A stretch of DNA of 64,000 nucleotides, taken from an uncultured Candidatus Saccharibacteria bacterium. GTDB lineage: Bacteria > Patescibacteriota > Saccharimonadia > Saccharimonadales > Saccharimonadaceae. Every line of letters starts with the position of its first letter. Position 1 is the stretch's first letter. Below, in pieces: positions 6,539-51,088 of this stretch. Under the pieces are notes generated by a model. That model saw only the letters and a list, made by a program, of their open reading frames with translations. It made no database searches and was not told where the DNA came from. The DNA lies in NCBI GenBank assembly GCA_946527885.1, contig CAMMYO010000001.1:578-64577 (forward strand), given 5' to 3'. The position numbers were made by a program, and so were the translations under genes.

Positions 6539-6543
6539 CACTC

Positions 6544-6572: not shown

Positions 6573-6579
6573 GTAATGC

Positions 6580-17835: not shown

Positions 17836-18578
17836 TGGCACTCGAAATCCATAACATTAACGAAGTTGATGAGTCTGCGCCGAAAACGCGGGCTCATCGT
17901 TTGACCGATATGCGCGAAGCAGTGCGTATTCAGAATCGCGTTAATCTTTACGTTGACAATAAATACTATTGCTCGTTGGATATTTCACAAGTAGTCGACT
18001 TTCATTTGAAAATCGGTCAAGCGCTGGATGATGAGTTGTTGGCGCGTTTAAAGAGCGCGTCAGATTTTGGAAGGCTTTACGCGCTTGCGCTTGAGTACTC
18101 GATACTGCGACCGCGCGCCGAAAAGGAGCTGCGCGATTATCTTCGCTGCAAAACTCTAGACAAAACAGTTCGGGTCAAGAATCGAAAAACCGGTGAATAT
18201 GTCACAAAAATACGTAAGGGCTACGACCAAAGCTTGATTCGGCCTGTTTTTGAGCGGCTAAAATCCCGAGGATATCTGGATGATGAGAAATTTGCTCGCA
18301 TTTGGGTCGAGAATCGCAACGTCAAAAAAGGTTCTAGTCTCAAGAAGATTCGGAACGAGCTGCTGCAAAAAGGCGTCGATTCTCGTACCATTGACAAGGT
18401 ATTGAGTGATGATATCCGCAATGATCGTGACGAATTGCGCAAGGTTATTGCGCGCAAACAAAATAAATATGACGACCGTCAAAAATTCATCCAGTATCTA
18501 TTGCGCCAAGGCTTTAATTACTCAGATGTCTTGGAAGAGCTGTCGGGAATTGAAGATTCATCTTCCTGGCCGGCATAA
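17835..18578 (+). CDS. recX: RecA regulator RecX
   Basis: The start overlaps the recA stop (TAATG). Three-helix repeat pattern and the conserved position after recA. Confidence 0.75.
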   Translation: MALEIHNINEVDESAPKTRAHRLTDMREAVRIQNRVNLYVDNKYYCSLDISQVVDFHLKIGQALDDELLARLKSASDFGRLYALALEYSILRPRAEKELRDYLRCKTLDKTVRVKNRKTGEYVTKIRKGYDQSLIRPVFERLKSRGYLDDEKFARIWVENRNVKKGSSLKKIRNELLQKGVDSRTIDKVLSDDIRNDRDELRKVIARKQNKYDDRQKFIQYLLRQGFNYSDVLEELSGIEDSSSWPA

Positions 18579-26416: not shown

Positions 26417-27880
26417 ATGAAAAGTAAAGTTCATTTTTCGGTCATCCCGCTAGCAATCGCCGTTGCATATCTTTTTGCTGCCATTGTCGTGCGTTTTGTG
26501 GGGCTCGCCATGGATCTTCCGCAATGACTGTGAATCTTTGTGTTTGTTTTTAGTCTTTTGGCTCTTTTCGCTCGAAATTTGCCAAGAATCCTGCTATCGT
26601 TTCTGGCTGGCTTTCTTGTGGGTTTTATTCAGCACGCGAACTATCTCAAAGGTCTGAATGATATTACTAGTCATATCGGCAAGAGCGTTCAGATTGAGGC
26701 TCAAATCACGCATGCGCCAGAAATAAAAAATGGCTCACAAACCCTGCGAGCGAACATTATATCCTTTAATTATAGCATAAACGATATAAAAAGTCAAATT
26801 TATCTATCGCTACGGTCGCAAACCGAACTGAAGCAGGGCGACGCGGTCATTGTTCGCGGGGAAATAATGCCGGGTTTCGGCAGCTACGTAGTTTCGATGC
26901 GTCAGGCGAATCTAGTCGCAATTCGACCTCGGGCGCCAACATTGATCGATTGAGCTCGGACTACTTTTTCGTCTCGATTAGAGGGCGTGTTTTTGGATGA
27001 AAAATGCTCATCGCTCGCGCTCGCATATCTTGTCGGCGACAAGCAGGGAATCGATGAGAACTTTCTAGATCAACTGCGCGCCGTCGGACTTTCGCACATA
27101 ATCGTAGCTTCTGGCTTTCACCTGGCAACTATCGTAGGCGTCATTCGGCGCCTTCTTGGTAAAGTATCGCGTTTCGCTGCGACAACTGGCTCGATTTTAC
27201 TAATGGTTTGCTATATTGTGCTAGTCGGTTTAAGTGCGAGCATGCTACGAGCGAGCATCGTTACAATGTTGTCGATTTGCTTCGGTTATTTTGGTCGTAG
27301 ACTGCATCCGTGCCGAGCGATAATTTATGCTGCGACCATCTCGTTGTTGTTTAGGCCAGACTTTCTGACTGACGCGGCGTGGCTACTATCTTTCGCATCG
27401 TATATTGGAATCGTGATATTTCGACCGATTATTCAAAAATTCTTCTACGGTCGACAGAAACCGCCCGCTCTTTCGGATATGATTTTGACTACGATTTCAG
27501 CCCAGCTGGCCTGCACCCCGATATCGCTCTTCTTTTTTGGTAGCATATCGTTTTTGGGTGTTTTGGCAAACATACTCATCTCTCCGACTATTCCAATCGT
27601 GATGGGTGCTAGTTTCATGGTAGTCATTTCGCCTTCGGCCGTTGCGGGGTTAGTCGCGGTTCTCGCAAAGGGAATTCTTCGTTTGCAAATGCTAGCCGTG
27701 AGCTTTCTCTCCGAATGGCGCTGGGGTATTCTTGTGGTCGATAAAAATGAGCCGAGAGTACTGCTGCTTTATGTCGGAATTGTGCTACTGATTCTAGCGA
27801 TGACTCATCGCGAACGCTTTCGCTTTCGTCGACGCCGACTAGATAAAACGTCAAAATATGGTAAAATATATTCATGTTAA
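26417..27880 (+). CDS. comEC: DNA internalisation channel ComEC (DUF4131 plus competence domain, no beta-lactamase domain). The frame is interrupted by in-frame TGA at 26525-26527, 26531-26533 and 26951-26953.
   Basis: One frame is open from ATG 26417 to TAA 27880 apart from three TGAs. It reads ...AMDLPQ-X-L-X-IFVFVFSLLALFARN... and ...RAPTLID-X-ARTTFSSRLEGVF...LAYLVGDKQGID...GLSHIIVASGFHL. The track shows only the fragments 26540-26953 and 26987-27880. Confidence 0.65.
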
Positions 27881-30220: not shown

Positions 30221-30255
30221 AAAAATATGCGCCCGCAAAAGCGCATATTTTTTTA
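30221..30255 (+). terminator. intrinsic terminator after rny
   Basis: ATATGCGC-ccgcaaaa-GCGCATAT, then a T7 tract. Confidence 0.7.
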
Positions 30256-30279
30256 TTGCGCTTGTGCTAAAATAAAAGT

Positions 30280-31128
30280 ATGAGCGAGAAAAGCGCTAAT
30301 CTTCAGGGTGGTCAAAATACTGAGGAAAATCAAGAGAATAAAACAGATTATAATTTTCGCGCCGAAAATATCAATCAGCGTGATGAGTCTGCGCTTTTTG
30401 CGCACGTTCGCGAAGACATGGAAAAGCAGGCGATTGAACAGCGCCAGGCGAAACAAGAACTCCGCAGCCAGTACAAGCAAGAGAAGAGTGAAGCCGCGCA
30501 ACGGGCTCGCAGCGAAAAAGAAGCTGCCGCCAAAATGCGCGCCGCAGAAAAAACTCAGATTCGCGAGGCTCAGAAAGCCGTCCGCTTCACGCGCCGCCGC
30601 GAGCGCAATGCAAAAATCAAGGAATTCATTTTTGGCGGCTGGCACAAGTATGTCTTCTGGACTGTCATCTTTCTGGTTGTCGCAATCTCTGTAAAAGCAA
30701 TCATGTCCATCAACTTCAAAGTCGCCGAAGAAAAACAAGCCGAATATACATCAGAAATCGCAAAAACCAGCAATGAATATCTCGAAATGTATAGAGAGTT
30801 TGAAAAGACTAATGATGCGGGCGCTATGGTGTCAAAATATGAGGAGGTGCTCAAAAATACAACTCCGAATCAAATCGAGTATCGCACGGCTGCGATTCAA
30901 TACGCGAAAGTCTTGCAAATGGGCGGAAACTATAAAGAAGCAGTTGAACTGCTTAAGAGTATAGAAAAATATGCCGAATCGGACAGTGAACGGCGATGGA
31001 TTTATATTGGTATATATGAAGCTAGCAGATTAGACGATGATTTGTCTGCCGAAACTGAAAGCTATGGTAAGAAAATTCAATCACTAAACAAGTCGATAAA
31101 TGATGGAGACCCGTATGAAGAAGAGTAG
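30280..31128 (+). CDS. module A1: bitopic membrane protein with a charged K/E/A/R-rich N-terminal region, one TM helix and a helical TPR-like C-terminal domain
   Basis: 282 aa. TM segment is YVFWTVIFLVVAISVKAIM. Preceded by TGcTAAAAT plus 6 nt. Its 3' end overlaps the next gene by 14 nt. Confidence 0.75.
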   Translation: MSEKSANLQGGQNTEENQENKTDYNFRAENINQRDESALFAHVREDMEKQAIEQRQAKQELRSQYKQEKSEAAQRARSEKEAAAKMRAAEKTQIREAQKAVRFTRRRERNAKIKEFIFGGWHKYVFWTVIFLVVAISVKAIMSINFKVAEEKQAEYTSEIAKTSNEYLEMYREFEKTNDAGAMVSKYEEVLKNTTPNQIEYRTAAIQYAKVLQMGGNYKEAVELLKSIEKYAESDSERRWIYIGIYEASRLDDDLSAETESYGKKIQSLNKSINDGDPYEEE

Positions 31129-34100
31129 TACACGCGCAATATTAACGGCCGCTATTCTCGCGTTGGCATTCGGGGGGCGCACGAGTGCTGAGCAGGTTGT
31201 CGCGAATCCTCATGCCGGCTACTGCAATAAAACCTCCGAAGTGGCATTCAAGTCGTGGACCGATGAGCAGCACGGCTGTTTTTCCAGTGGTCTTGGCTGG
31301 GTTTACTATAAATTTTCTGACGAATTTCAGGCTCTAACGCCAGATAAGAGAAAAGAAATTATAAAACATTTGTTCGTGGGGCCAGGCACCAGTACGGGTA
31401 ATCTTACTGACGAATCGATGGTTGGCGGCGGCAATGGCGGCTGGTGGTCTGTAGCGGGTCTGAGCGATTGTTTTTCTAGCGCGCCTAGTCGCAAGAACCC
31501 TGACGGCTTCTACCGTTTTGGCATGATTCAATATAAAACCTCATCGTCATTCGAGGCGAGCGACTCCAACAGTGATGGCTGGAAGTCGTTTAGCACTCTC
31601 GTGTCCGGCGACGTTGCCGGTGCTATGCTTACTGGTAACCAGCCAAGAACTGCAACTAACGGTAGCTGGAGTACTGATCGTCAAGATGGTAGCGGAAACT
31701 TAGCCACCACTCATCTTAGCCAGGAAATTAGAATTTCGGGAACTGACACGGTAAATAATGCGACATATAATAAGTTCCTAGTGGCCACTGCTGTTAGTTT
31801 TACGGACGCTATAAACGACGAGGCTGCTGGCGGCATCAAGTCCGAGTATGATGAGATGTTAAATGAAACAGGGCTAAGCAATCACTGGGAACAAGATGGT
31901 GACGGCAAAGCGGTTATGTCGTTCTGTGGTTACGGCTCCGGTATAGGCGAACAAGATGCCTATTTCAAAGGCTCGGTCGCAATCAATATTGGCGGAACAT
32001 CCGTAGTCACAAGTAGCGATCCTGATGCAAATCCTATTCCGTCTGGGAGCAAAGAATATCCGACCAATGTTTCGAACCAAACCATCACGCTCACCTATAC
32101 TTCTCAGCCAGCCGGCTCGACAGCAAAGCCAAAATATTCGGTGTCGTACACGGTCGAAAAGCGCAACGCTGATGGCTCCTGGACGCAAGTTGGAACGGAT
32201 TCCAAAAATGACATTACGGCTAGCAATACTACTACATTCTCATCCACTACGAGTGGCAGCCCGCTAAATATTACGCTTAACTATGGCGAAGAGTATAAAA
32301 TTTGCGCCTATAATTCATACCACAGCAAGGCGACCTATCAGAATATCAATTATCCAGTCTACGGCAGTGTCCAAAAAGTTAGTGCCTGTGCTACGATTAC
32401 GCGCCCACTTCTGACTTCCGAGCTCCACAGTATGGCCTTTGCTAAAATCGATGGTACTCAATACAACTCAAGCCAAGACGGAACTGGTTCGATTGACGCA
32501 AACCCGTCCACTGCCACCATTGATCCAATTTTGGTTGAGCCGGGTACTTCGCATACGGTTGAGTTATGGAACAATCTGACCCGTACTAACGCAGTTTTTG
32601 ATACGACTTTTAATACTACCTATAACGGAGCAACATCGTCGGTGACCATGGCCAATCATGTAGGTAGCTACGATTTTACTCACCAGAATGAAACGGTTAC
32701 TTTACAACCGCAAGAGGAACGAGATTATTCGACCGAGCTTACGCATCCGGCTCAAGTTAATAACAGACCAGAATCCATCGGTTCGCGCACTTCAAAGCTA
32801 TCGTTTAAGATTCGTGGTAAAGATTTTGAATGTAACTCGGATTTTGGCAGTTACAAGAAATTTGGCGTCAAGGACGGTTATAACATGTCCATCGTCAAGG
32901 TAACGAACGGTCGCCAGACTGTCGGTACTACGAACTACGCTTACGATGGCGACGACAGCAATACGGTTTCTGTTTGGGCGAGACCTAACGATACTATTCA
33001 ATTTACGCATCTCGTTTGTGCGGGCGCGACTTATACAGCCTACAAAAAGAACGACACTGCGACGGAAGGAAAAACCAAATATATCGCAAGCGCCGCTAGC
33101 GACTTGAATACCGGTAACTTCCTGTATGGTTCTTCGTTTACGGCAGCGAATACTCAAAATCTCGTCACGGATCCGATTGGTAATTTCTTGAACTCCGACA
33201 AGGAAAAATCTCCTCGCTATACCTTGAGTGTAAACTCGCCTTCAAGCTCCTCGACTGCGGTTACTGTTAATGATCTCGGCTCTACGATTAGCCAGAAAAT
33301 GACCTGGTCGAATATTGCCTATGTTGGCGGTAATCTTGAGCGCAATGGCGGTAGCGACAAAGAGGCAACCGCAGAAGTAAAGATTCCATATAACTATGTC
33401 TTGAAACCATCCGTTTCGATTGGCGGCTCAGAAGACGAGCATGTTATGCCAGGCATGAATCTAAATATTTCCGGATCGTTGAATGTCGACGGTCGTCAAA
33501 ACAAAGACATTAAAACGAGCGACGGCATTCTTTTGGGCGCTTACGCCACTAATACGCGCGCTACTGAAACTCGCTTGATTGTATTTTCTTCGGAAAACGG
33601 AATGACATCCAGCGGCGTAAAGTATGTTTCTGGTGATGCCGGCCTAAGCGACGGAACACTCTGTAGCGAGGCGGCTGGATCGGTTAACTGCTCGTCGCAT
33701 TATCGTCTCAGTACTGAGAGCGGCGAGGTCTATGGTGGTGGCGATCATAGTAGTCTAATTAGCGGGACGCACACGGTTGCGCTCGACGGCATGAAGGTTG
33801 GTACGCATATTTGCGCCATTACCGCCAGTTATCCTGCCGATAGTCATGCGGCACCGACTGCTAATTTTCCAGACAACGCACCGGCTCTCGGTAGCAATAT
33901 CCCTAGCGGTTCATACTGGGCGGTATCTGCGCCGGCCTGTGTTACGGTAGCAAAAAAGCCAACTGTAAGTGTCGAAGGTGGCGATCTCTTTGTAAAGGGC
34001 GACATTATTGCGTCACACACGAAGCGCGGTCCAAATCCGGACGAAAATTACTTTGGCTCATGGGCGGAATACGGTGTTATCTCGACCGGCTCTATCTATG

Positions 34101-35029
34101 GCTTTAGCTCTGGTGCTGCTACCGCATACGCTGCGGGTGGCTCGTTAGTTAGCATAAATGAATCTAGAACTGCTGCTGGCATGTCGAACGCAAAGAGTCC
34201 CGCCGAAGAGGGTGAGACGCGCTGTCTCTATAATACGCAAACTTTCGCAAACTTAAACTGTATCGAGACAGGAGATGGTGCGATTGGAAATGTAGATGGC
34301 ACGGCAATTGCTTCGAAAGTATCGGCTTATGCTAGGGATGTAATCGCTCGCTTTACGCCAACCGACAAGACTAATAACGATCCATTTACCGGGAACATCA
34401 GCGGCTGTACCTTAGATGACGGATCTTATGTAAATGGCGACGGGAACAACAACTATAGTTGCCGCACGGACGGTATTGCAACCTTCTATCGTGATGGCGA
34501 TACGACGCTTAATGGCATTAGTAGTTTGTCGATGCCTCGCGCTGATAATAAGACTCTCGTTATCTTTATTGATGGCACGCTTACACTAAACGGAGACATA
34601 AAAATCAGCAATGGTTCATATTCTAGCGTTATGGATGTTCCGAACGTTGTCGTAATCGCTCGCAATATCAAGATTTCGCAAAGCGTAAGTACGATTGATG
34701 CGTGGCTAATATCCGGCTACAATGATGCGGCGGCAGAGGATGGCGAGATCGATACGTGCTACGAATATGCCGCTGACAGCTTAAACTCGGAGCGGTGCGC
34801 GAAGTCGCTTATCGTGAATGGTATGACTTTGGCTAAAAAACTGAGCCTAAAGCGTACCGCCGGTGCCGGCACAGACGAAAATAGCCAATCATTTGGCGCA
34901 AATCACTACATTAAACGAGCGGAAATCTTTAATTTGCCAGCAACAAATTACTATTGGGGCTATGGCAGTGCTTCGAAGAGCAACGCTATGCGCACTAACT
35001 ATATGCGCGAAATTCCATCGCGCTACTAA
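31115..35029 (+). CDS. module B1: giant secreted Cys-containing, Asn/Thr/Ser/Gly-rich protein (1304 aa), paralog of 35843-40264
   Basis: Sec signal MKKSSTRAILTAAILALAFGGRTSA/EQ, with GGAG 6 nt upstream. Long uninterrupted ORF. Conserved blocks shared with B2 include PTVSVEGGDLF, CLYNTQTF, IDAWLIS and RAEIFN...YYWGY...EIPSRY. Confidence 0.85.
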   Translation: MKKSSTRAILTAAILALAFGGRTSAEQVVANPHAGYCNKTSEVAFKSWTDEQHGCFSSGLGWVYYKFSDEFQALTPDKRKEIIKHLFVGPGTSTGNLTDESMVGGGNGGWWSVAGLSDCFSSAPSRKNPDGFYRFGMIQYKTSSSFEASDSNSDGWKSFSTLVSGDVAGAMLTGNQPRTATNGSWSTDRQDGSGNLATTHLSQEIRISGTDTVNNATYNKFLVATAVSFTDAINDEAAGGIKSEYDEMLNETGLSNHWEQDGDGKAVMSFCGYGSGIGEQDAYFKGSVAINIGGTSVVTSSDPDANPIPSGSKEYPTNVSNQTITLTYTSQPAGSTAKPKYSVSYTVEKRNADGSWTQVGTDSKNDITASNTTTFSSTTSGSPLNITLNYGEEYKICAYNSYHSKATYQNINYPVYGSVQKVSACATITRPLLTSELHSMAFAKIDGTQYNSSQDGTGSIDANPSTATIDPILVEPGTSHTVELWNNLTRTNAVFDTTFNTTYNGATSSVTMANHVGSYDFTHQNETVTLQPQEERDYSTELTHPAQVNNRPESIGSRTSKLSFKIRGKDFECNSDFGSYKKFGVKDGYNMSIVKVTNGRQTVGTTNYAYDGDDSNTVSVWARPNDTIQFTHLVCAGATYTAYKKNDTATEGKTKYIASAASDLNTGNFLYGSSFTAANTQNLVTDPIGNFLNSDKEKSPRYTLSVNSPSSSSTAVTVNDLGSTISQKMTWSNIAYVGGNLERNGGSDKEATAEVKIPYNYVLKPSVSIGGSEDEHVMPGMNLNISGSLNVDGRQNKDIKTSDGILLGAYATNTRATETRLIVFSSENGMTSSGVKYVSGDAGLSDGTLCSEAAGSVNCSSHYRLSTESGEVYGGGDHSSLISGTHTVALDGMKVGTHICAITASYPADSHAAPTANFPDNAPALGSNIPSGSYWAVSAPACVTVAKKPTVSVEGGDLFVKGDIIASHTKRGPNPDENYFGSWAEYGVISTGSIYGFSSGAATAYAAGGSLVSINESRTAAGMSNAKSPAEEGETRCLYNTQTFANLNCIETGDGAIGNVDGTAIASKVSAYARDVIARFTPTDKTNNDPFTGNISGCTLDDGSYVNGDGNNNYSCRTDGIATFYRDGDTTLNGISSLSMPRADNKTLVIFIDGTLTLNGDIKISNGSYSSVMDVPNVVVIARNIKISQSVSTIDAWLISGYNDAAAEDGEIDTCYEYAADSLNSERCAKSLIVNGMTLAKKLSLKRTAGAGTDENSQSFGANHYIKRAEIFNLPATNYYWGYGSASKSNAMRTNYMREIPSRY

Positions 35030-35103
35030 AATTGCGCGCCATTCCGCTTATGTGTTAAAATAAATTACAAGAGAACGCATGCATTTTTTGCAACGGAGGT
35101 AAA

Positions 35104-35865
35104 GTGCAAGGTCAAAATAACGAAAGCGGAAACGACTCCGCAGACTTGAATTTCAAGTCGTCCGATATTCAGCAGGGCGACGAAGGTCAGCTTTTTGTTA
35201 ACGTCGAAGGCGCCGAAGAACGCGCCGCTGAAGAAGCTGAAGCAAAAGCAAAAATAGAGGCTGAGGAACGTGCCAAACAGGAGGCCGAGCAACGCACTCG
35301 CGCCGCCGAGGAGCATGCCCGCCAAGTCGCCGAACAAAAAGCCGAAAAAGCCCGCCTTGCCAAAGAAAAGAAACTCGCCAAAAAAGCCGCCGGCTCCAAC
35401 GGCGCCAGCAAAAAGAAAAAAATCGCAATCGCCTCTGTTGCGGCTGTAGTCGTGTTGGCGGGCGTCGCAGCACTCGCTATATTCTCAACGCCAAAAGTTG
35501 ATGGTGACTCCGATGCCGATCCTAGCGAGATGCATGTCGATACAGAACGCGATTTTACTGCAAGAGCCAGGATTTCTGCTAACGAAGAGATAATTAGCAA
35601 ATATGAGAATGACCCGTATTTTGGAAAAGAAGAGGCCTATGCTGAATACGATAAAAATATCGAATCCGTCGGTGACGATAGGGAGGCAAAAACGGTCTGG
35701 AGGAATTTTAAAGTAGACTTTGCTTATAATTTTGTAAAAAACAAAAAAGAAGCGAAGGAGTTTTATGAGGAGATGTGTGCAATAGATAACATGACTGAGA
35801 AAGAGTCGAACTTGTGCATTAATCAAGAAAGGATTTTCTGGGATGACGAAAATGGGTCGAATTAG
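35104..35865 (+). CDS. module A2: bitopic membrane protein with the same architecture as A1
   Basis: GTG start after GGAGG. AEERAAEEAEAKAKIEAEERAKQEAEQR charged region, TM segment IAIASVAAVVVLAGVAALAIF, helical C-terminal domain. Overlaps the next gene by 23 nt. Confidence 0.75.
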   Translation: MQGQNNESGNDSADLNFKSSDIQQGDEGQLFVNVEGAEERAAEEAEAKAKIEAEERAKQEAEQRTRAAEEHARQVAEQKAEKARLAKEKKLAKKAAGSNGASKKKKIAIASVAAVVVLAGVAALAIFSTPKVDGDSDADPSEMHVDTERDFTARARISANEEIISKYENDPYFGKEEAYAEYDKNIESVGDDREAKTVWRNFKVDFAYNFVKNKKEAKEFYEEMCAIDNMTEKESNLCINQERIFWDDENGSN

Positions 35866-38800
35866 AAGATGTATATTCAGCTGCTTCTTAGTAGCGCTAC
35901 TGATTCAGTTGGCGTCAATATATAACGCATATGCGGCGCTGCAATTTGATACGGGCGGCGGCGGTGGCGCTAGTGGCTGTAGTGGCGGTACTGCGTTCTC
36001 GGCAAACTTTCCAAGTACTCAATCGATATGTCATTATCAGAACAGCAATATATTTTCTGTTCCTGTTTGGGTTGAATATAAGTTTTCTAATAATTTCATA
36101 AAAGCGGCTAGAAATGGCGACAGAACAGTCTTTAGCGCCGCTGATTTGCAAAATATATATAACGGCTTTTTCTTGTCGCCTGGCAATAACCGAGATGGCG
36201 GGGTAAAAAAGCTGGGTGGTGTCGAAAGCTGCGTGACTAGCGGCGGAAGCGGTTTTTTCCGACTAGCAAACCTAGAGGCAAAGTATAATTTCTTTTATGA
36301 CACTCAAGAAGGCAATGGGCATGCGCAAGAGGCGAAGTATTCTGATACGGCAAGCCTAAATGATATGGTTATATTCACGGTAGTTGCGCCGAAAGATGTT
36401 AACTACTATAACAACGTAGAATCTAAAAAAACTAATCCAAAGACTGCGGATGATTATTATGGGTCAATCTTGAGGTACGCCCCTATTGGAACAAATACTC
36501 TATACGGCTTTGATGGCGGTGCAGCTGGTCTTAATTCATGGCGTGTAGTTAACTACAATGACTATGTGAGTAGCTTTACGAGTAGCAACTTCACCAACAA
36601 TGACAACTGGGGGCAATACGTATATTACGGCGGAATTGACGGAACGCATCTAATCGCATCTGCTGAAGGTAGAGGCGCCTTTACTTCGCCGACTGTGAGC
36701 TCGGGAGAGCCTTACGCGTATAAAAAATATAAGCAACATGGCGGCTCGTGGGATTTGAATACATTTAACGGTAGACCTGGTGGTACTGTAGATTTGTCAT
36801 CTGGTGTCCGTTCTTTCTGCGCCTACCCAGAAAAAACTGAAAATACATACAGCGGGTCAACGAAAGTCTTCTACAAAAAGGGCGCCGCAGATGAGCAGTC
36901 ATCAGCTAATACGAGTCATGCAGTCGTCAACATTGCCCCAGAAGACGATACGGTTACTGTTGTAAAACAATACACTATTGGACGCGAAGGCAGCGGTACT
37001 ATTAATGCGAAGATTAAACGCGATTTAGACAATGATTGGATATCGTTCGCGCCGGGATCTAAAGACGAGACTGAGACCAAGTCGATTGAACCTGGCGGCA
37101 CGGTCGAGTTTTGCGCCGAAATGAAATACTACAAGAAGGCCGTTAAAGAGACCGGCGATCCTAATTATACGGAAGAAGGCGAAGCAAACAAATCCTGTCT
37201 AACCTTCTATCGCCCATATTACGTAACGGACATCGATGGTGCTATCGAGTCCAAGGTCTATGAAACGTCATCGCAGTCTAGCGCTTATGTCGCGTCGCCA
37301 AACCCTGTCGAACACGTAGACTACAAAAGTCCTAGCCTTTCGAAAGAAGTAATTGTCGACGAGCCATATGCCAAGGTAAACTTTACGCCATACATCTGCC
37401 GCCACAACAGTAAGTACGCCGCACAAGAAATCCCTAGTGGCGCTACCTATTCAAATAACTTTAAGTTGACCTATTACGAGGATGGCGCCTGGACAGTCTC
37501 TGGCGCAACTCCAAGAGCTGTAAATATTTCCATTGGCAAAGTTAGCAGTATAGACGGGACCTGTGAACGTAGCGGTGGGCCAAGCTGGCATACATTCGCG
37601 TCAGACATCACAAGTTCGCATGAAACGGGCGAGTTGCAGCCGGGCGAAGCTAAAACCTACAAGGAGTCGATTACTTACCCAGAGCGAGTCGATAATGCTG
37701 GCAACTCAAAGGCCGGAAATAAATCTGTCGATCTCGAGATCACCGTCCGCCGCCGCGGCTTCAAATGTGTTGGTTTCGAAGGAGGCTACAGCTTCTTCGG
37801 CCCTAGCAAAGGCGCCAACATGGCTAAGATTACTATTGCGGATTCTACTAATACCAACCTTAACGATAATAACCCTAACAGGCGCCAGGCTAGCACGGAT
37901 AATTATCCAGGTGGCGGAACGACGGATAACGCTGTTCTATTTACGAAACCTAATCGCAGAATTCGATTCGAGTATAATGCCTGCGCTGGCGGCGCCTATG
38001 CAGTGGCAAAGTCTAGCGAAGGCGACGGATGGGGCGACACGCAATTTATAATCTCGAATCCTAGTGATCCGAACGGTAATGGTTTGTTTGGTTTTCGTCC
38101 TGAATCTCAGCAGGATCTCGATGAGGGTAACAAGATTGTGCTTGAATATGGTAATACTGGAAATCTAAACAGAAACGGCTATCAGAAAAGAATCACGTCT
38201 AATCATGGTGCTACTCCAGCTGTATCTGCTCTAAATACCGCAATAGCCTCATTCCTGACGGACAAATATAGAGAGAACGAATATCCGATAAATAGCGGAA
38301 GTATGGTTTTGCCGAAATATACTCTCGCCGAAAAGCTTTGGTCTCCGGGTGGCAAATCTGATGGTTTGCCAATCGAATCCGACAATGTAGGTCAATCCAT
38401 CAAGCGTCAGATTGAATGGAAAAACCTCGAAATGAATTATGGCTCGAAAACGACAGGAGAAAATTCAGTGGCGACTGCAGAGCTGCGCGTTCCGTACAAC
38501 TACTATCTAAACCCTACTGTTGATATTAACTTTGGTAACGATTACTATGTGAGGCCGGGCCAGGTCATTGACAAGCTGGATATCGACCTCGGCGTCATGG
38601 ATCGTAAAAACGAGCAAGTTGGTGAAACATACGCCACGAAAATTAAACCGACAACAATCCAGGTGAGCTGGTTTAAGATGACTGGCAGCGTAGATAGTGG
38701 AAGCGTTTCGAGCAGCGGCAAGCTTAAGCGCGGCGAAATCGCGGCGAGATCTATTTGCAACGAGGTTTCATCGCGTGCTAGTGAATGTACCGAGGTGGAA

Positions 38801-40264
38801 ATTTTAAATGATGAAGTTAGAGACAAGACTAATGACAAAATTAATTTGAGCACAGAGACTAATAGGAAGAGTATTCCGTTCAATAATGTTAAACTGGGCG
38901 ACACTGTTTGCTATGTTGCGTCCGTATATCCATACGACAGCCATGCTGTAATTAGAGCTGACGGCAAGCCGTACTTTAACGCCGAAAACGCCACTCAACC
39001 GGATGCAGCTTCGGCAATCGATGACACCGACCAGTCGCATGCTCTTCAAAAAGAAGCGGACAGCAATGACTATACCTATATCTCTGCGCCGATCTGTCGC
39101 AACATTGCAAAGCAACCAACCGTTAGTATCGAAGGTGGCGACTTGCTAGTCGGTAAAGCTATCAAGACCTCGAACTTCCGCTTCTATCCAAATCCAAACG
39201 ATTTGACCAACGGTAGCACAATCGGCTCGTGGTCTGAATATGGTGCCTTGGTTGGCGGAAAAGAAGCAACTTTTGTGCGCAGAACTACAAACTTCGCCAC
39301 GGGTGCTACGACTGCCTATGGAAAAGACACGACGGTAAGCACAATTAATCAAAGAAGTGTCGACGCTGGCTATGTGAAGAGTCTAAATTCTGGCACCGAT
39401 ACGGATGGTACTTTGTGTCTGTATAATACGCAGACAATTACAAATAACGAGTGTGCTAGCGGTAAGACTGGTATTGATCCTAGCACGGAGTCCGAGACGG
39501 TCTATGACAAGGTGGCCAAAAATGTCGCCCGTCTTGTAACTGCTCTCAAGACGAAATATCGTAATGCTTATTCTAAAGTCGCCACGAACGGCACTAATAA
39601 CTATACGTTTAAGGGTTGCGCAATTGCGGAAGGAGAGACTGAGTATAGTGTAGTTGCTGGCGGAACGAACTATAGTTGTCGTCCAAACGACGGTGTTGCA
39701 TATTTGCACTTTGGCAGCAGCGCAGACAGTGAAGCGATCAAGACGATTGACTCGCTTAGTATTACTTGGCCGGACAATAACTCTAATCGTACTTTGATTA
39801 TTGACGCCAATAACAATAATTTGATCATTAAGAGCAACATTGTTTCCTATTACGAAACATATAGCAAGCTATCGAAGGTTCCGAACGTGATCATATTCGC
39901 TAAAAACGTATTTATTGATCCGTCCGTAGAAAGAATTGATGCTTGGATTATTTCCAGCAATGACTCTTCGGAAGGAGACGGATTGATTAATACCTGCTAC
40001 GGAACGAGTGACGCAAATCAGGATAGTGACGACTGCAAATACCAGCTCGTGTTCAATGGTCCGGTTATCGCAAGGAATCTCGAATTGAGGCGCTCTTATG
40101 GCGCCGGCACCGGAGAAGATGAATCATTCGACAGCGATCGCTTCATTCAGCGCGCCGAAATCTTCAACATGAATCCACTGCCGTACTACTGGGGCTATAA
40201 CCAGACGGTTATCGAGAGCACGCTAAAGACTACCTTCTCAAAGGAAATTCCGTCACGTCTGTAG
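35843..40264 (+). CDS. module B2: giant secreted protein (1473 aa), paralog of 31115-35029
   Basis: Sec signal ...LIQLASIYNAYA/ALQ. Uninterrupted 4.4-kb ORF. Collinear similarity to B1 along its whole length, strongest in the last ~390 aa. Confidence 0.85.
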   Translation: MTKMGRIRRCIFSCFLVALLIQLASIYNAYAALQFDTGGGGGASGCSGGTAFSANFPSTQSICHYQNSNIFSVPVWVEYKFSNNFIKAARNGDRTVFSAADLQNIYNGFFLSPGNNRDGGVKKLGGVESCVTSGGSGFFRLANLEAKYNFFYDTQEGNGHAQEAKYSDTASLNDMVIFTVVAPKDVNYYNNVESKKTNPKTADDYYGSILRYAPIGTNTLYGFDGGAAGLNSWRVVNYNDYVSSFTSSNFTNNDNWGQYVYYGGIDGTHLIASAEGRGAFTSPTVSSGEPYAYKKYKQHGGSWDLNTFNGRPGGTVDLSSGVRSFCAYPEKTENTYSGSTKVFYKKGAADEQSSANTSHAVVNIAPEDDTVTVVKQYTIGREGSGTINAKIKRDLDNDWISFAPGSKDETETKSIEPGGTVEFCAEMKYYKKAVKETGDPNYTEEGEANKSCLTFYRPYYVTDIDGAIESKVYETSSQSSAYVASPNPVEHVDYKSPSLSKEVIVDEPYAKVNFTPYICRHNSKYAAQEIPSGATYSNNFKLTYYEDGAWTVSGATPRAVNISIGKVSSIDGTCERSGGPSWHTFASDITSSHETGELQPGEAKTYKESITYPERVDNAGNSKAGNKSVDLEITVRRRGFKCVGFEGGYSFFGPSKGANMAKITIADSTNTNLNDNNPNRRQASTDNYPGGGTTDNAVLFTKPNRRIRFEYNACAGGAYAVAKSSEGDGWGDTQFIISNPSDPNGNGLFGFRPESQQDLDEGNKIVLEYGNTGNLNRNGYQKRITSNHGATPAVSALNTAIASFLTDKYRENEYPINSGSMVLPKYTLAEKLWSPGGKSDGLPIESDNVGQSIKRQIEWKNLEMNYGSKTTGENSVATAELRVPYNYYLNPTVDINFGNDYYVRPGQVIDKLDIDLGVMDRKNEQVGETYATKIKPTTIQVSWFKMTGSVDSGSVSSSGKLKRGEIAARSICNEVSSRASECTEVEILNDEVRDKTNDKINLSTETNRKSIPFNNVKLGDTVCYVASVYPYDSHAVIRADGKPYFNAENATQPDAASAIDDTDQSHALQKEADSNDYTYISAPICRNIAKQPTVSIEGGDLLVGKAIKTSNFRFYPNPNDLTNGSTIGSWSEYGALVGGKEATFVRRTTNFATGATTAYGKDTTVSTINQRSVDAGYVKSLNSGTDTDGTLCLYNTQTITNNECASGKTGIDPSTESETVYDKVAKNVARLVTALKTKYRNAYSKVATNGTNNYTFKGCAIAEGETEYSVVAGGTNYSCRPNDGVAYLHFGSSADSEAIKTIDSLSITWPDNNSNRTLIIDANNNNLIIKSNIVSYYETYSKLSKVPNVIIFAKNVFIDPSVERIDAWIISSNDSSEGDGLINTCYGTSDANQDSDDCKYQLVFNGPVIARNLELRRSYGAGTGEDESFDSDRFIQRAEIFNMNPLPYYWGYNQTVIESTLKTTFSKEIPSRL

Positions 40265-42147: not shown

Positions 42148-43163
42148 TGAAAAAGCAAAATCGAAAAATTCGAAAAGCCTTCACGATTATCGAGTTTATG
42201 CTCGCTATGTCGTTTTTGGCGGTGCTTCTGATTGCGATATCTACGCTTACTGTTCGCATTTTGCAAATCTATCAAAAGGGCTTGGCTCTTCGCGCTATCA
42301 ATGAATCCGGTAAAGCGATTATTACGGATTTCGAGAGCGCAGTCGGTTCGTCGGTTGTTCGCAGTAACTACGCAAACCCGACCGTAACGGATCCTATGAG
42401 CACTGACGTAAGCAAGTCTGCAGTTAATGAGAAGAAATTCGAATACTTTAAGCCATTCTATCAAGAGCAAACCGTTGGCGATACTACCGTGAAAGAGCAA
42501 CTATCTGGTATTTTCTGTACTTCCAGCTACGCCTACATCTGGAATACCGCCGCTACAATTAAGGCGGCTCGCGAAATGAGATATAGTGTCTCGCAGGAAG
42601 TCTTATATAATAACTACCTGGCAAATCCGGGCGATACGCTAGATGGCGAGACTACTTATCCAAGCAAGGGTATTGCTGTTCTAATTGATAAAGATGACGG
42701 AACTAAGGAAATGGCTTTCCCGAAACTTGCTCGTATTCCAAATAATGGCGACTATTGTACGCATGAGCTGCCAGAGGACTCGGGCTCTACTGATTACGAT
42801 ACGGAATCTCCATATGATAGCGATAATTCGGCGCTAGATAAAGGAAAAAAGATCGAAGTTAGCGAAGATGACTATACCGAGCTCTTGTATCAAGATGGCG
42901 ACGACTCGGACCTTGCGGTATATGACCTTGTCGTTACCTCTGCCTATCAGAGTAATGCCACGAACCATATTCTGTACAATATTAGTCTCATTCTCGGTAC
43001 AGTGAATGGCGGAATCAATATTAATAGTTCTGGCGACTACTGTACTGGCGACAAAGATGAAAGCATTAGTGATGAATTTACTAAGAGCGGCTTCGAATAT
43101 TGTGCGATCAATAAATTCGATTTTACTGTGACGCAGACAGGTGAGAGTAGCATCAATAATTGA
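42147..43163 (+). CDS. pilin-like protein 3 (338 aa)
   Basis: MKKQNRKIRKA/FTIIEFMLAMSFLAVLLIAIS. The start overlaps the previous stop (TAATG). Ends in TGA-T. Confidence 0.7.
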   Translation: MKKQNRKIRKAFTIIEFMLAMSFLAVLLIAISTLTVRILQIYQKGLALRAINESGKAIITDFESAVGSSVVRSNYANPTVTDPMSTDVSKSAVNEKKFEYFKPFYQEQTVGDTTVKEQLSGIFCTSSYAYIWNTAATIKAAREMRYSVSQEVLYNNYLANPGDTLDGETTYPSKGIAVLIDKDDGTKEMAFPKLARIPNNGDYCTHELPEDSGSTDYDTESPYDSDNSALDKGKKIEVSEDDYTELLYQDGDDSDLAVYDLVVTSAYQSNATNHILYNISLILGTVNGGININSSGDYCTGDKDESISDEFTKSGFEYCAINKFDFTVTQTGESSINN

Positions 43164-43188
43164 TATAATAGAGTCAAGTAGGAGGAAT

Positions 43189-44541
43189 ATGAGCAATCAG
43201 CAAAAAACTAAAAAGGGCGCGGCCGCAATCATGGTCGTCATCATCATTACGATGGTGACCGGCGTTATTGCGCTTAGCTTCGTGCGCCTCATGCTCCTAA
43301 ATGCGAGCAATACGAACGATTACAGCTTGTCCGATTCGGCCTACAACTCTGCGTTGGCTGGCGTCGAGGATGCAAAGGTCGCTCTCTTGAAATATCAAAA
43401 GTGCCGCAACAATAACGATTCTTCATCTGACTGTTCGGCTATTATTAACGCAATCGAAACGGACGAAGAAAGTCAGTCTTGCGATATTTTGAATACAATT
43501 CTTTACGGCGACGATGCAAGTAAGGGCACGGAGACTTATATTACCTCTGGCGATTACGGTCAAAACTCCATCATTGATCAGGCCTACACTTGTGTAAAGA
43601 TGAGCATGGATAGTGACTACACTGACACGCTTAGCGAGAGTGACTCTTCGCGCCTTATTCCTGTACGCGTACGTGGCGGTGTCGGCCAGATCAAGAGTTT
43701 CAAAATTAGCTGGTTTAGCGACCAGAATGCCCAAGATGCACAATCGACATCTAGCTATCGGCTTTCGGTAGATCGCAGCAATAACTATTATAGGCCGGCT
43801 GGCGGCTATGGTCAGCAGACGGTTGGCACTGACTCTTATGACGAAGAAATTACCGGTGGCCGTTTTACGCAGGATGTTCGTAAACCGTCTGTCTTGCGTG
43901 TAGACTTCTATCAAAGCTCCGCAAGTTTTGACCTAAACAGTTTTTATGCGGGTAAGGAACTTGCGACCAATCGGTTCTCTATATTATTTAACCCAACCAA
44001 AGAAGGTTCCGGGCCTTATGTAAACCTAGTTCCGGAGGGGAGTGCTGCACATACATCAACAAAGTCGATGAATATTCCGGTTGACATTAAATGTGAAGAT
44101 GTAGACGATACTGACGGCAGCGCTTATAAATGCTACTCGATTGTAAATATACCTAAAAATTTGAACGGCGACTCGAAGAATGATGATACGATGTTCATGC
44201 GCGTAAGCCTACCATATGCTGCTCCTAATACAGACTTCAATATAAAACTCTATAATGGTGATGCAGCCTCTGGCAACGAAGTCCTATTTAGCGGCGTTCA
44301 GGCAGTAATCGACTCGACTGGTCGCGCAGCTGATCAGTTCCGCCGCGTCGAGGCTCGCGTCAATCTAGCGAATCCAGATTTCCCATATCCTGAGTACGCA
44401 CTTGCGCTAGAGGGTAATCTAGAAAAGAGCTTCTGGATTACAAAGAACTGTCTCTCTGCGAATGGTAGGGGTGAGGTAACAGCGTGTGCCAACTATAGCG
44501 ACATTACGGTTACTTCGACACCAACGCCAGAAGGCGACTAA
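43189..44541 (+). CDS. PilX-like pilus protein (450 aa)
   Basis: MSNQQKTKKGAAAIMVVIIITMVTGVIALSF is a PilX_N-type N-terminus (no Glu+5). AGGAGG Shine-Dalgarno. Start moved from the track's GTG 43141. Confidence 0.65.
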   Translation: MSNQQKTKKGAAAIMVVIIITMVTGVIALSFVRLMLLNASNTNDYSLSDSAYNSALAGVEDAKVALLKYQKCRNNNDSSSDCSAIINAIETDEESQSCDILNTILYGDDASKGTETYITSGDYGQNSIIDQAYTCVKMSMDSDYTDTLSESDSSRLIPVRVRGGVGQIKSFKISWFSDQNAQDAQSTSSYRLSVDRSNNYYRPAGGYGQQTVGTDSYDEEITGGRFTQDVRKPSVLRVDFYQSSASFDLNSFYAGKELATNRFSILFNPTKEGSGPYVNLVPEGSAAHTSTKSMNIPVDIKCEDVDDTDGSAYKCYSIVNIPKNLNGDSKNDDTMFMRVSLPYAAPNTDFNIKLYNGDAASGNEVLFSGVQAVIDSTGRAADQFRRVEARVNLANPDFPYPEYALALEGNLEKSFWITKNCLSANGRGEVTACANYSDITVTSTPTPEGD

Positions 44542-44545
44542 TAGC

Positions 44546-44572
44546 AAAATATGCCCTACGGGGCATATTTTT
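44546..44572 (+). terminator. intrinsic terminator ending the 30280-44541 cluster
   Basis: AATATGCCC-tacg-GGGCATATT, then a T-tract. Confidence 0.7.
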
Positions 44573-46600: not shown

Positions 46601-48835
46601 ATGCCAAATCCTCCAGCAAAGGCTGGGCAGGGCGGAAAAGCTCCTGCAGCGCCAGCCGCAAAACAAAAACCAAATAATAGCGCAATTGCGCAGGTCGTTG
46701 AACGTATTCGCACCAGCGATAACGTTTTGATCGCGCTTTCGAAGAACCCAAGCGTCGACGAATTGACTGCCGCTCTCGGCCTTACCTATATTCTCGACAA
46801 GATCGGCAAGCACGCGACCGCAATTTTCTCGGGCGAAATCCCGAATATTATCGAGTTTTTGGAGCCGGAAAAAACTTTCGAATCCGATACGAACAGTTTG
46901 CAGGATTTCATTATTGCTATTAATAAAGACAAGGCCGACCATCTTCGCTACAAGATTGACGGCGACTATGTCAAAGTCTTTATTACGCCATACAAAACTA
47001 CCATTACCGAGGCGGATATGGAGTTTAGTCATGGCAACTACAACGTTGACCTTGTGATTGCCTTCAATGTTTCTGGTGAGGATGAACTTGATGGCGCCTT
47101 GACCGAGTATGGCCGCATTATGCACGATGCTAGCTCGATTAATATTTCTGCGCACGAACCGGGCAAATTCGGTGACCTTGAGTGGGGCGATACACATGCA
47201 TCATCTGTTTCGGAGATGGTTGCACGCCTCGCGAACTTGATTAAAGTTCCTGATGTTGAACTTCTCGACAAGACCGTTGCTACCACTTTGCTTGCCGGTA
47301 TTATCGCTTCTACGAACCGCTTCTCGAATGAGCGCACGACTGCTGAGACGATGGCGATTTCCGCCAAGTTGATGGCTGCCGGCGCCGATCAGCAACTAAT
47401 TTCTTCAAACGTTCCGGTGGATATTTTGACTCAAGAGCCAGAACCAGAAGTCGACGAAGAGGCCGAAGCTGCCGCTAAAGCCGAAGCCGAAGCTGCCGCT
47501 AAAGCCGAGCAGGAAGCCAAAAGAGACGCCAAAGCCGCCGCGTTAGCCGTCGCTGACGCTGCTGCCGAAAAAGCCGAAGCGGGCGCCGAAGAAGAGGACG
47601 AAGATGTCGAAGAATCTGAGCCAGAAGAAGAATCGGAGCCAGCCAAGCCTGTCGATCCGACCGCACTAACGATTCACCACGGCGCAATTGATTACAAGCC
47701 AGAAGAAAAGAAAGAAGAGCCGACTCCAGAAGAGAAGATCGCCGCTGCTCGTAAGGCGGAGAAAGACGCCGCAATCAAGGCTGAGGCCGATCGCATTGCC
47801 GCCGAAACCGTAAAGAAGAACGAAGAAAAAGCCGCTGCCCGCAAAGCCGCGGAAGAAAAGGCGAAAGCCGAAGCTGCCGCTCGCAAGGCCGCTGAAGCTG
47901 AAAAGGCTGCCGCCGCCCGCAAGGCTATCGAAGAGAAGGTTGCTGCTGAAGTTGCTGCTCGTAACGCAAAGCCGAAAGCTGTCGAATCAAAACCAGAGCC
48001 GACCCCAGCACCGGCGCCGAAGCCAGAATCAGAACCGACTCCGGCCCCAATGCCAGAAATCGCTACGAGCCCAGCGGCTAGTATCGACGATCTTGACCGG
48101 GCACTTGCTGCCGCTATGGCCGCACAGAATAACGGTGTTTCGCCTGCTTCGGTTGCCCTAGATAAAACTCCGAGCACCGCTCAGGTTGTTCCGACCGACG
48201 CGCTAGCTGAGGCTGCCGCAAATGCTGCCCCACAGATGACTAGTGCTGGCAGCATGAATCACATTATCGCTGCTCCAAGGCCAGAAGAAATTTCCAATCC
48301 ACTCGCAGACGCTGCAAGTAGTGCCGCCTCTGCAAATCCAAGCAAGGTAATCGATCTGCCAGAAGGCGGTATCCGTCCGCCAGAACCGCCAAAGGACTAC
48401 TCGGCCGCTATGTCTGCCGCTCTCGCAACGGAAGAAGCCACGGTTCCGCCAGCCACAATTCAGCCGGCCGCTCCGGCACCTACCGTCGATATCTCGGGTG
48501 CTGAATATGTCGCACCATTGCCAATGCCGGATCCAGATTCTATTTTGCCGCCACCGCCATTGCCGTTTGAGCCAACCGCGGCGCCGGCTATGCCAAATAT
48601 GCCAGACTTACAAACCGCAACACCGACCACGCTTGAAATTCCAGAAGTTCAACCAATCCAGCCGGCTAGCGAAAGTGCTGCCGCGCTTGCAGATAATCTC
48701 CAGGCCGCAAATGCTGCTTTGCCAACTATGCCAGCGGTCCAGCCGGCAACGCTCGAACCTGCGACTGTTGGAGTTCCGGCAATGCAAAACCAGGTCTATC
48801 CAGACCCAGGCGCCTTCAAGATTCCAGGCATGTAA
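46601..48835 (+). CDS. degenerate DHH/DHHA1-like domain protein with a ~480-aa Ala/Glu/Lys/Pro-rich disordered C-terminal region
   Basis: The N-terminal ~260 aa have an NrnA-like layout, but the catalytic motifs are replaced (ALSKNPSVDELTAALGL, DLVIAFNVSG). GIIASTNRF is retained. Confidence 0.6.
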   Translation: MPNPPAKAGQGGKAPAAPAAKQKPNNSAIAQVVERIRTSDNVLIALSKNPSVDELTAALGLTYILDKIGKHATAIFSGEIPNIIEFLEPEKTFESDTNSLQDFIIAINKDKADHLRYKIDGDYVKVFITPYKTTITEADMEFSHGNYNVDLVIAFNVSGEDELDGALTEYGRIMHDASSINISAHEPGKFGDLEWGDTHASSVSEMVARLANLIKVPDVELLDKTVATTLLAGIIASTNRFSNERTTAETMAISAKLMAAGADQQLISSNVPVDILTQEPEPEVDEEAEAAAKAEAEAAAKAEQEAKRDAKAAALAVADAAAEKAEAGAEEEDEDVEESEPEEESEPAKPVDPTALTIHHGAIDYKPEEKKEEPTPEEKIAAARKAEKDAAIKAEADRIAAETVKKNEEKAAARKAAEEKAKAEAAARKAAEAEKAAAARKAIEEKVAAEVAARNAKPKAVESKPEPTPAPAPKPESEPTPAPMPEIATSPAASIDDLDRALAAAMAAQNNGVSPASVALDKTPSTAQVVPTDALAEAAANAAPQMTSAGSMNHIIAAPRPEEISNPLADAASSAASANPSKVIDLPEGGIRPPEPPKDYSAAMSAALATEEATVPPATIQPAAPAPTVDISGAEYVAPLPMPDPDSILPPPPLPFEPTAAPAMPNMPDLQTATPTTLEIPEVQPIQPASESAAALADNLQAANAALPTMPAVQPATLEPATVGVPAMQNQVYPDPGAFKIPGM

Positions 48836-51067: not shown

Positions 51068-51088
51068 ATCTTTATAATAGCACAGCAC

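Follow-up and report, generated by a model that had tools for sequence, protein, structure and literature searches.

The stretch of DNA analysed here, referred to as the window, comprises 64,000 nucleotides of contig CAMMYO010000001.1 (assembly GCA_946527885.1) from an uncultured Candidatus Saccharibacteria bacterium. It harbours a block in which two copies of a two-gene module, A-B, precede four pilin-like genes, P1-P4. A encodes a bitopic membrane protein and B a giant protein exported via the Sec pathway. The order is A1 (30280-31128), B1 (31115-35029), A2 (35104-35865), B2 (35843-40264) and P1-P4 (40283-44541), all on the plus strand and within one terminator-bounded block. The open reading frames (ORFs) listed in an earlier reading of this DNA made from the sequence alone (the original prediction) are all present at these positions and on this strand.

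At its 5′ boundary, the block is preceded by an intrinsic-terminator-like hairpin with a T-run (30221-30259, plus strand; hairpin 30221-30252), which lies after the RNase Y gene and folds at -13.9 kcal/mol (z -2.85; 0 of 200 shuffled sequences fold as well). The 3′ end carries an intrinsic terminator (44546-44572, plus strand) consisting of ATATGCCC-TACG-GGGCATAT followed by five T residues. Since a consensus terminator scan did not pick it up, this element was checked by folding, which gave a strong signal (-17.4 kcal/mol, z -4.83) and so bore out the proposal that a single terminator closes the block. Folding found no terminator-like hairpin between B1 and A2. With flanking terminators, none inside and neighbouring genes that overlap or abut, the A-B-pilin block can be read as one putative transcription unit. 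The overlaps of 14 nt between A1 and B1 and of 23 nt between A2 and B2 are real, and each B start has its own Shine-Dalgarno sequence (GGAG 8 nt upstream of 31115 and AAAGGA upstream of 35843); the fixed A:B stoichiometry that had been read from these overlaps is speculation.

B1 (1304 aa) and B2 (1473 aa) have the same architecture. Based on its sequence, a conservation map, AlphaFold2 (AF2) models and Foldseek comparisons, B1 can be divided into a signal peptide (aa 1-25), a hypervariable region (~26-560), a moderately conserved Ig-like middle part (~560-840) and a conserved C-terminal module (~880-1304) that contains a β-solenoid core (aa ~1114-1294). When 103 long family members were placed on B1 to obtain the conservation map, the hypervariable region showed less than 10% column identity and low occupancy. 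The two proteins are collinear paralogs, as had been proposed: residues 349-1304 of B1 align with 392-1473 of B2 at 28% identity (E 2e-92), an N-terminal WVYYKFS/WVEYKFS block matches in addition, and every motif pair quoted in the original prediction is visible in the alignment. The Sec-type signal peptides, the richness in N/T/S/G/Y (44% of B1 and 41% of B2) and the scattered Cys residues (18 and 22, respectively) were likewise described correctly.

An exhaustive HMMER search using the conserved two-thirds of B1 and B2 as query retrieved 2,623 representative clusters (50% identity) at E <= 1e-3, and 2,161 at <= 1e-10. Family members range from 400 to 1,757 aa in length, and the segment common to every one of them is the last 160-180 residues; B1 and B2 have a Sec signal peptide, as do about 128 of 166 family representatives. 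All 11 matches in species-representative genomes come from Saccharibacteria metagenome-assembled genomes, mostly of animal gut origin, and no source gives any member a name other than 'hypothetical protein'. A word-indexed search of 5.8 billion proteins with full-length B1 returned only the self-match because low-complexity words swamp the candidates; relatives were instead recovered with C-terminal-only B alignments.

Neither Pfam nor NCBIfam contains a match to B1 or B2 at E <= 1, no sequence in PDB was matched by B1, B2 or the core profile, and nothing in PHROGs or PADLOC matched either. The statement that B has no known catalytic or adhesin domain thus held up against all five collections, nor did the searches return the match to a well-characterised non-pilus family that the original prediction had named as evidence to look for against itself. 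B is a large family without annotation and without homology to known families. An origin as a prophage tail fibre was rejected, given the housekeeping flanks of the block and the lack of phage matches.

AF2 modelled residues 745-1304 of B1 with a mean predicted local distance difference test score (pLDDT) of 69 and a predicted template modelling score (pTM) of 0.68, and the core alone (1100-1304) with values of 81 and 0.78, respectively. In these models, the chain passes from β-sandwich modules into a β-solenoid and then a C-terminal helix, ending in a tail of low confidence. A Foldseek search with the 560-aa B1 model found nothing significant in PDB and BFVD, only generic Ig/CARDB sandwiches for the middle module and weak β-helices for the core; in BFVD, the best E value was 0.035 with TM-scores <= 0.16. 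The best neighbour of the core in PDB was the ice-binding/DUF3494 β-helix 5uyt_B (non-significant E of 0.14, probability 0.98, 125 columns, root mean square deviation 4.3 Å), with TM-scores of 0.37 (query) and 0.19 (target). The core and the DUF3494/ice-binding β-solenoids have a general fold class in common, with no Pfam match and no demonstrated homology. A β-propeller was seen neither in the AF2 models nor among the Foldseek PDB matches. The profile and structure searches of B that had been suggested as a check have hence produced no characterised family and only weak β-helix or Ig-like neighbours.

The most conserved element of the family is located at the extreme C-terminus. B1 ends in the peptide TNYMREIPSRY-COOH (34994-35026, plus strand), proposed here as a docking strand, and B2 in TTFSKEIPSRL (40229-40261, plus strand). 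Across 211 members, the consensus reads T-[T/V]-Y-x-R-E-L-P-P-R-[Y/F/L]-COOH, with conservation of 96% at E(-6), 96% at R(-2) and 87% at L(-5). The protein terminus is [RKH][YFLW] in 203 of these 211 members, with nothing beyond the motif. In the AF2 monomer of the B1 core, the peptide is modelled as a low-confidence tail. A sortase (LPXTG) or PEP-CTERM/exosortase signal was rejected, as no transmembrane (TM) segment follows the ELPPRY motif.

Turning to the partner proteins, the 125-aa N-terminal arm of A1 (282 aa; 62% K/R/E/D/Q/A in the arm) leads into a TM helix (aa 126-144, nt 30655-30711), after which comes a C-terminal domain of 138 aa. A2 (253 aa), which starts at a GTG preceded by a GGAGG Shine-Dalgarno sequence, has a 108-aa arm (69% K/R/E/D/Q/A), a TM helix (aa 109-127, nt 35428-35484) and a 126-aa C-terminal domain. 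In both, positive residues flank the cytoplasmic, N-terminal side of the helix. The likeness of A1 and A2 noted in the original prediction stands at the level of architecture; at the level of sequence, homology is weak beyond a 33-aa N-terminal motif, to which the BLASTP match is restricted (E 8e-5). This cytoplasmic motif lies at aa ~23-46 of A1 (nt 30346-30417, plus strand) and aa ~14-37 of A2 (nt 35143-35214, plus strand).

The relatives of A and B were followed in a set of further loci (L001-L019), where an A-like partner is found upstream of B almost everywhere. A bitopic ORF with a TM helix at about residue 120-145 lies directly upstream of B in L001, L002, L003, L005, L006, L007 and L008, and also in second copies in L004, L010 and L011. 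The long-form A proteins (window, L001, L002, L004-L008 and L010) carry the cytoplasmic motif, which can be written as ~[IV]xFxSx[DE]Ixx[KR]x5FxN[IV]xGxE and is followed by a charged linker; it is conserved in 13 A proteins, the ectodomains of which are poorly conserved. Distant lineages have a shorter partner (164-190 aa), anchored by an N-terminal TM segment and helical in its ectodomain, that lacks both the cytoplasmic arm and the motif. Profile-profile comparison nonetheless identifies the long and short ectodomains as homologous (hhalign probability 87%, E 3.8e-6). In L017, the place of the 160-300-aa A upstream of B is taken by a gene (6434-7978, 17-nt overlap with B) for a bitopic protein of 514 aa, which may be an expanded partner.

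As for the nature of the ectodomain, Pfam gives tetratricopeptide repeat (TPR) matches that are all sub-threshold: TPR_3 in A1 (0.07), TPR_21 (7.6e-4) and TPR_12 (2e-3) in copy 2 of L016, TPR_2/TPR_6 in L006 and copy 1 of L016, and faint precomputed TPR_1/2 matches in the L018 partner. Otherwise, A yielded only low-complexity or coiled-coil noise in Pfam, NCBIfam, PHROGs and PADLOC. TPR domains are known to bind peptides such as EEVD or PTS1. Binding of the invariant C-terminal peptide of B by the TPR-like ectodomain of A is disfavoured, however, since the ectodomains are poorly conserved and diverge together with the N-terminus of B.

A direct connection between the two proteins comes from natural A-B fusions (P0036, P0069 and P0073; 1,498-1,757 aa), which contain, in this order, the A motif, a TM helix, the helical domain and a full B. 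Such fusions constitute Rosetta-stone evidence suggesting that A and B work together, and they place the A ectodomain beside the N-terminus of B.

Within the window, the two modules show hardly any DNA identity, with a single 59-nt match at 75%. B1 falls together with P0021, at 35% identity along its full length, and B2 with P0022; each having its own ortholog, the duplication must predate those splits, with both copies kept. This agrees with the original prediction of an old duplication retained in both copies. Tandem duplication of A-B recurs in L004, L010, L016 and L018.

Genome RGIG5773 holds two further B genes, one linked to pilins (L005, 7943-12427) and one unlinked (L006, 8114-12262). 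Along the first ~600 columns of the alignment, identity of their products is only ~15%; it is 40-65% in the middle and ~100% in the last ~270 residues, and at the DNA level the final 1.5 kb of the genes are 88% identical. Their A partners are alike only around the cytoplasmic motif (58% across 55 aa). Constancy, within one cell, of the C-terminus of B and of the cytoplasmic motif of A implies shared partners, and the joint divergence of the B head and the A ectodomain implies a cognate pair. The pattern suggests one common docking partner that serves alternative heads; it also suggests gene conversion or cassette-like swapping of heads on a constant docking module. Together with the natural fusions, this co-divergence of A ectodomain and B N-terminus supports the earlier view of A as a dedicated membrane partner of B.

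A more novel reading takes A-B for more than a PilY1 substitute, namely a device of a new kind that spans the membrane and is coupled to the pilus. B would stay linked to the cell via A, in keeping with the natural fusions, with its C-terminal peptide in the pilus initiation complex and its head on the host, and the A motif would relay engagement, or extension and retraction load, to a cytoplasmic partner. We regard this arrangement as rather improbable; if true, episymbiotic Patescibacteria would have in it a sensor or anchor of their own for host contact, the heads of which could be exchanged and would set the host range.

The four genes downstream of B2 connect the module to type IV pili (T4P). 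P1 (40283-41317, plus strand; 344 aa) is minor pilin-like and resembles GspH/FimU; its N-terminus reads KKG/FTIMEA, and it matches Pfam N_methyl (0.009) and, sub-threshold, NCBIfam GspH (3.9e-4). P2 (41308-42147, plus strand; 279 aa; HG/DTIMEV) is a GspI/PilV-like minor pilin-like protein with an NCBIfam GspI match of 1.3e-6 that falls under the curated cut-off. P3 (42147-43163, plus strand; 338 aa; KA/FTIIEF), also minor pilin-like, occupies the GspJ/PilW position; in PDB, its profile matches nothing but pilin N-terminal helices, and GspJ was not confirmed. P4, in the GspK/PilK/PilX position, is the largest of the four (43141-44541, plus strand; 466 aa from GTG 43141). Two starts come into question. 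From GTG 43141, the ORF shares 23 nt with P3; orthologs begin near ATG 43189 (MSNQQKTKKG...), which is the more likely start (450 aa). P4 begins with the hydrophobic stretch KKG/AAAIMVV, devoid of Glu5 as in K-type subunits, and P1-P3 have prepilin-type N-termini with Glu5. With class III signal features and four syntenic genes in H-I-J-K order, the description of four pilin-like genes following B2 on the same strand proved accurate. An equivalent, essential tetrad follows pilD in S. epibionticum, with SEML1_0116 as its fourth member, which structural mapping assigns to GspK (3CI0 chain K) (PMC10633639, Table S2).

The resemblance of P1-P4 to a GspH-I-J-K tetrad invites a different reading, in which the four proteins form a pseudopilus similar to that of type II secretion systems (T2SSs) and B is its cargo, pushed in folded form across the cell wall after Sec export and released as a free or wall-bound exoprotein (an adhesin, toxin or enzyme) with the help of A as a foldase or holdase. 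Lif, the lipase-specific foldase, is a membrane-anchored protein co-encoded and coupled with a T2SS-secreted lipase, and A, too, is a small bitopic helical partner translationally coupled to its client. Saccharibacteria have been credited with 'T2SS' genes in the literature, and the many Cys residues and Ig-like modules of B are typical of exoproteins. However, T2SS substrates need no stably inserted docking strand and should have none (PMC13533445), whereas B possesses an invariant free C-terminal peptide. The homogenised C-terminal module and divergent heads in RGIG5773 also fit a retained interface better than a released cargo, and in five lineages B precedes an operon that holds the retraction ATPase PilT, a sign of a true T4P. 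Taken together, release as cargo is unlikely.

Linkage to pilus genes is not restricted to the window. The loci were chosen blind to pilus genes but were not sampled at random; with L002, L009 and L011 left out as uninformative, 12 of the 15 informative loci have T4P genes next to the A-B pair, falling into two independent pilus contexts. In the minor-pilin context, homologs of all four P1-P4 genes directly follow B, as is the case in the window, L004, L005, L007, L008 and L010. L017, a distant lineage with a 592-aa B, likewise has P1-P4 homologs after B (E 3e-17 to 5e-53). In the machinery context (L012/13, L014/15, L016, L018 and L019), a small partner and a 620-700-aa B are the first genes of an operon containing pilM, pilN-like, pilO-like, pilB, pilT, pilC, pilin and pilD genes. 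In these loci, A-B is not usually found away from pilus genes, which the original prediction had named as evidence against itself; such a position is seen in 3 of 15.

A generic surface or S-layer-type adhesin with incidental pilin synteny would account for these three pairs and for the fact that no domain links B to pili by homology. However, adjacency to T4P genes in the other 12 loci, in two gene contexts and with B lengths and lineages that diverge widely, would be hard to obtain by chance, and the genes of the window block, without internal terminators, read as co-transcribed. Mere coincidence of this kind is thus very improbable. The neighbourhood of TlyA, YchF (minus strand) and pilM seen in L012, L014, L016 and L018 also exists in S. 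epibionticum ML1 (SEML1_0103-0104), there without A-B. This absence, along with the three pairs away from pilus genes, marks A-B as accessory and lineage-variable rather than a core part of the pilus, and there is good reason for confidence that A-B is a T4P accessory module.

How such a module would relate to the pilus machine is a further question, for which the machinery context offers one possible answer. Here, A-B would be a stationary envelope part of the machine: B is tethered via A, its β-solenoid serves as a collar, conduit or anchor through the monoderm wall or S-layer, and the pair could stand in for the missing secretin and pilotin, with the A motif coupling to the basal body or relaying signals. 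In line with this notion, B heads the pilMNO machinery operon in five lineages, natural A-B fusions have an N-terminal TM anchor, the A ectodomain is TPR-like as in the pilotin PilF/PilW, the cytoplasmic motif of A is conserved, and β-solenoids are common in structural, polymer-forming proteins. However, a conduit is unlikely to be hypervariable over half of its sequence, to range in length from 590 to 1,750 aa, or to bear alternative heads on an identical C-terminus; moreover, the T4P of S. epibionticum works with no A-B at the equivalent locus. No oligomerisation motifs were noticed in B, with no search aimed at such motifs. On balance, a stationary role seems improbable.

The alternative that we favour is suggested by known pilus-tip proteins. 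The PilC/PilY1 proteins, tip adhesins of type IVa pili in Neisseria, Pseudomonas and Myxococcus, are, like B, non-pilin proteins of ~1000-1500 aa that have a Sec signal, are encoded in an operon with core minor pilins H-I-J-K and combine a variable N-terminal part with a conserved C-terminal part. Encoding of a Sec-type non-pilin with core minor pilins is a trait of that family and applies to B in 7 loci that adjoin P1-P4 homologs. The function of PilC/PilY1 depends on the extreme C-terminal ~10-12 residues, and the last 11 residues are the most conserved feature of B. Where PilJ and PilK meet, this tail of PilC/PilY1 enters the minor pilin of the PilK family as a β-strand. The tail is required for piliation and in part suffices for it, and its insertion has been argued to explain retention of the adhesin under load (PMC13533445). 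Two paralogs per genome are present in both cases, B1 and B2 in the window and PilC1 and PilC2 in Neisseria (PMC13533445).

Homology is not a prerequisite for this role, as illustrated by MshQ of the Vibrio cholerae mannose-sensitive haemagglutinin (MSHA) pilus. MshQ (~1200 aa) is not a PilY1 homolog, is encoded beside the pilIJK homologs mshDOP and is predicted to donate a C-terminal strand to its PilK homolog (PMC13533445), a role that rests on modelling. It has no known A-type partner, whereas B does, and B has matched none of the family models searched. With its Sec signal, non-pilin nature, hypervariable N-terminal half and conserved C-terminal module, B would have an architecture typical of tip adhesins; and since it fits the PilC/PilY1/MshQ class on every feature checked, it is proposed as a structurally unrelated member.

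Accordingly worded as a proposal, B would be a non-homologous pilus-tip adhesin docked by its C-terminal strand, and A its private membrane chaperone or anchor, an explanation to which we assign an even chance of being correct. We infer docking to the minor pilins, location at the tip, adhesion and a chaperone role of A along the following lines. B would be exported by Sec and its signal peptide removed. Its C-terminal β-solenoid, chiefly the last ~11 residues, would then dock onto an initiation complex of the GspH/I/J/K-like P1-P4, most likely by donating the terminal peptide as a β-strand to P4 (the PilK position) at the P3 interface. B would be carried at the tip of the pilus, where it may have a part in licensing assembly (priming), with its hypervariable N-terminal half pointing outward as a binding head for host-cell or other surfaces. 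After export, the TPR-like ectodomain of A would hold the variable N-terminal part of its own B as a chaperone, holdase or anchor, and the conserved cytoplasmic motif of A may contact a shared cytoplasmic component in gut lineages. Two A-B pairs would then provide two alternative heads on a common docking system, as is the case with PilC1/PilC2 in Neisseria.

Several observations weigh against this proposal. B shows no sequence homology to PilC/PilY1, the seven-bladed β-propeller of which (the PF05567-type C-terminal domain) contrasts with the β-solenoid of B; judging from the models, the lack of a β-propeller indicates that B is not a PilY1/PilC homolog. The core of the original prediction, in which B stands in functionally for PilY1-type adhesins and belongs with the pilin genes, has met no contradiction in the tests run and gains from the frequent linkage to T4P genes; tip location, adhesion and host attachment are the putative part of it. 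At the presumed docking site, neither Pfam nor PDB gave a match to the P4 profile, so that the GspK/PilK assignment is positional. In systems without such a protein, the K subunit supplies the strand in cis (PMC13533445); a conserved near-C-terminal segment of P4 might do so for the final strand, and SEML1_0116 appears to supply its own (ECOD mapping 6-125 plus 326-345). In the membrane-anchored A-B fusions, B would be tethered by the N-terminal TM helix unless cleaved, which is hard to square with departure from the cell on a pilus tip. The linkage itself has been estimated from a non-random set of loci, and the A-B pairs of L001, L003 and L006 are found away from pilus genes. Finally, pilM of S. 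epibionticum starts 12 bp after ychF, with no A-B between (PMC10633639, Table S1). As the T4P of this organism are functional and essential (PMC10633639), B is not generally required for piliation in the phylum.

Further differences concern the setting of the module. B lies upstream of the minor pilins and PilY1 downstream; B has a dedicated bitopic, TPR-like partner and natural fusions with it, neither of which is the case for PilY1; and the organism that carries B is a monoderm-type Patescibacterium without secretin, unlike the organisms that possess PilC/PilY1. A resembles Lif, the pilotins PilF/PilW/Tgl and class II chaperones of type III secretion systems in being small, helical or TPR-like and, as we surmise for A, held at the membrane and encoded beside, and coupled to, one large exported client. 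It differs from all of these by its N-in/C-out bitopic topology in a monoderm, by TPR membership that is sub-threshold only and, in the window-type A, by a charged arm of ~110 aa on the cytoplasmic side that carries a conserved motif. What is new in A-B would be the fold, the dedicated partner and the phylum, and the functional logic would be that of PilC/PilY1/MshQ.

Within Saccharibacteria, a study of N. lyticus TM7x proposed the largest pilin-like proteins without PilD signal, PilX1 and PilX2, as tip or adhesin subunits (PMC11623550). P4 resembles this class, but B differs from it as a separate, much larger Sec protein without pilin N-terminal helix. The papers on the T4P of TM7x and S. epibionticum (PMC11623550, PMC10633639) and the transposon sequencing (Tn-seq) study do not mention a B-like protein, and a literature search for PilY1 in Patescibacteria gave no relevant result.

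Elsewhere in the window, a PilB/GspE-type ATPase gene (T2SSE, 7e-89) is located a few kilobases from recA and recX (11304-12914, minus strand; 16783-17835 and 17835-18578, plus strand). This arrangement resembles 'T4P locus two' of N. lyticus TM7x, which comprises pilC2B2M2N2O2 and recAX (PMC11623550), so that a second pilus machinery is probably present ~18 kb upstream of the A-B block.

The block is flanked by housekeeping genes, with methionyl-tRNA synthetase (MetRS), an LtaS-like sulfatase, ComEC, TsaE, TsaB and RNase Y upstream and tRNA-Leu and RNase H downstream. The ComEC-like ORF (26987-27880, plus strand) covers only the 'Competence' membrane domain, with 297 aa from a GTG start; its counterparts in related loci measure 348-521 aa, and the window ORF may be mis-started or truncated. 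Just 3′ of the block, a 744-aa ORF without credible Pfam match (46601-48835, plus strand) represents another uncharacterised large protein. It is followed by tandem FemAB-family peptidyltransferase genes (48865-50004 and 50006-51088, minus strand; 1.6e-57 and 3.3e-59), probably for peptidoglycan cross-bridge synthesis. A protein with DUF348 and G5 domains (20053-21252, plus strand) has the architecture of a resuscitation-promoting factor or cell-wall hydrolase.

A DsbA-like gene (4144-4908, minus strand; Thioredoxin_4 1e-22, DSBA 1e-10) had been cited in favour of disulfide-bonded extracellular proteins. The gene is real and its product is compatible with Cys-rich exported proteins such as B; a specific link to the A-B block is not supported, and it was set aside as a part of the system, being 26 kb away and of general housekeeping function.

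Cultivated Saccharibacteria cannot lead their epibiotic life without T4P (PMC10633639, PMC11623550), and the published candidates for host recognition by these pili are pilin-like PilX proteins only. The B family described here is very large, linked to T4P and equipped with the hallmarks of a receptor-binding tip, namely a hypervariable head, a homogenised docking module, an invariant terminal peptide and a private partner, and it merits a Pfam or NCBIfam entry of its own. If the proposed role is confirmed, its members would be candidate host-range determinants for Patescibacteria. They would also constitute a third, structurally unrelated solution to licensing by β-strand addition, after PilC/PilY1 and MshQ, and would do so in a monoderm lineage. 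With Saccharibacteria now amenable to genetics, removal or grafting of the 11-residue motif could then provide direct tests in these bacteria.

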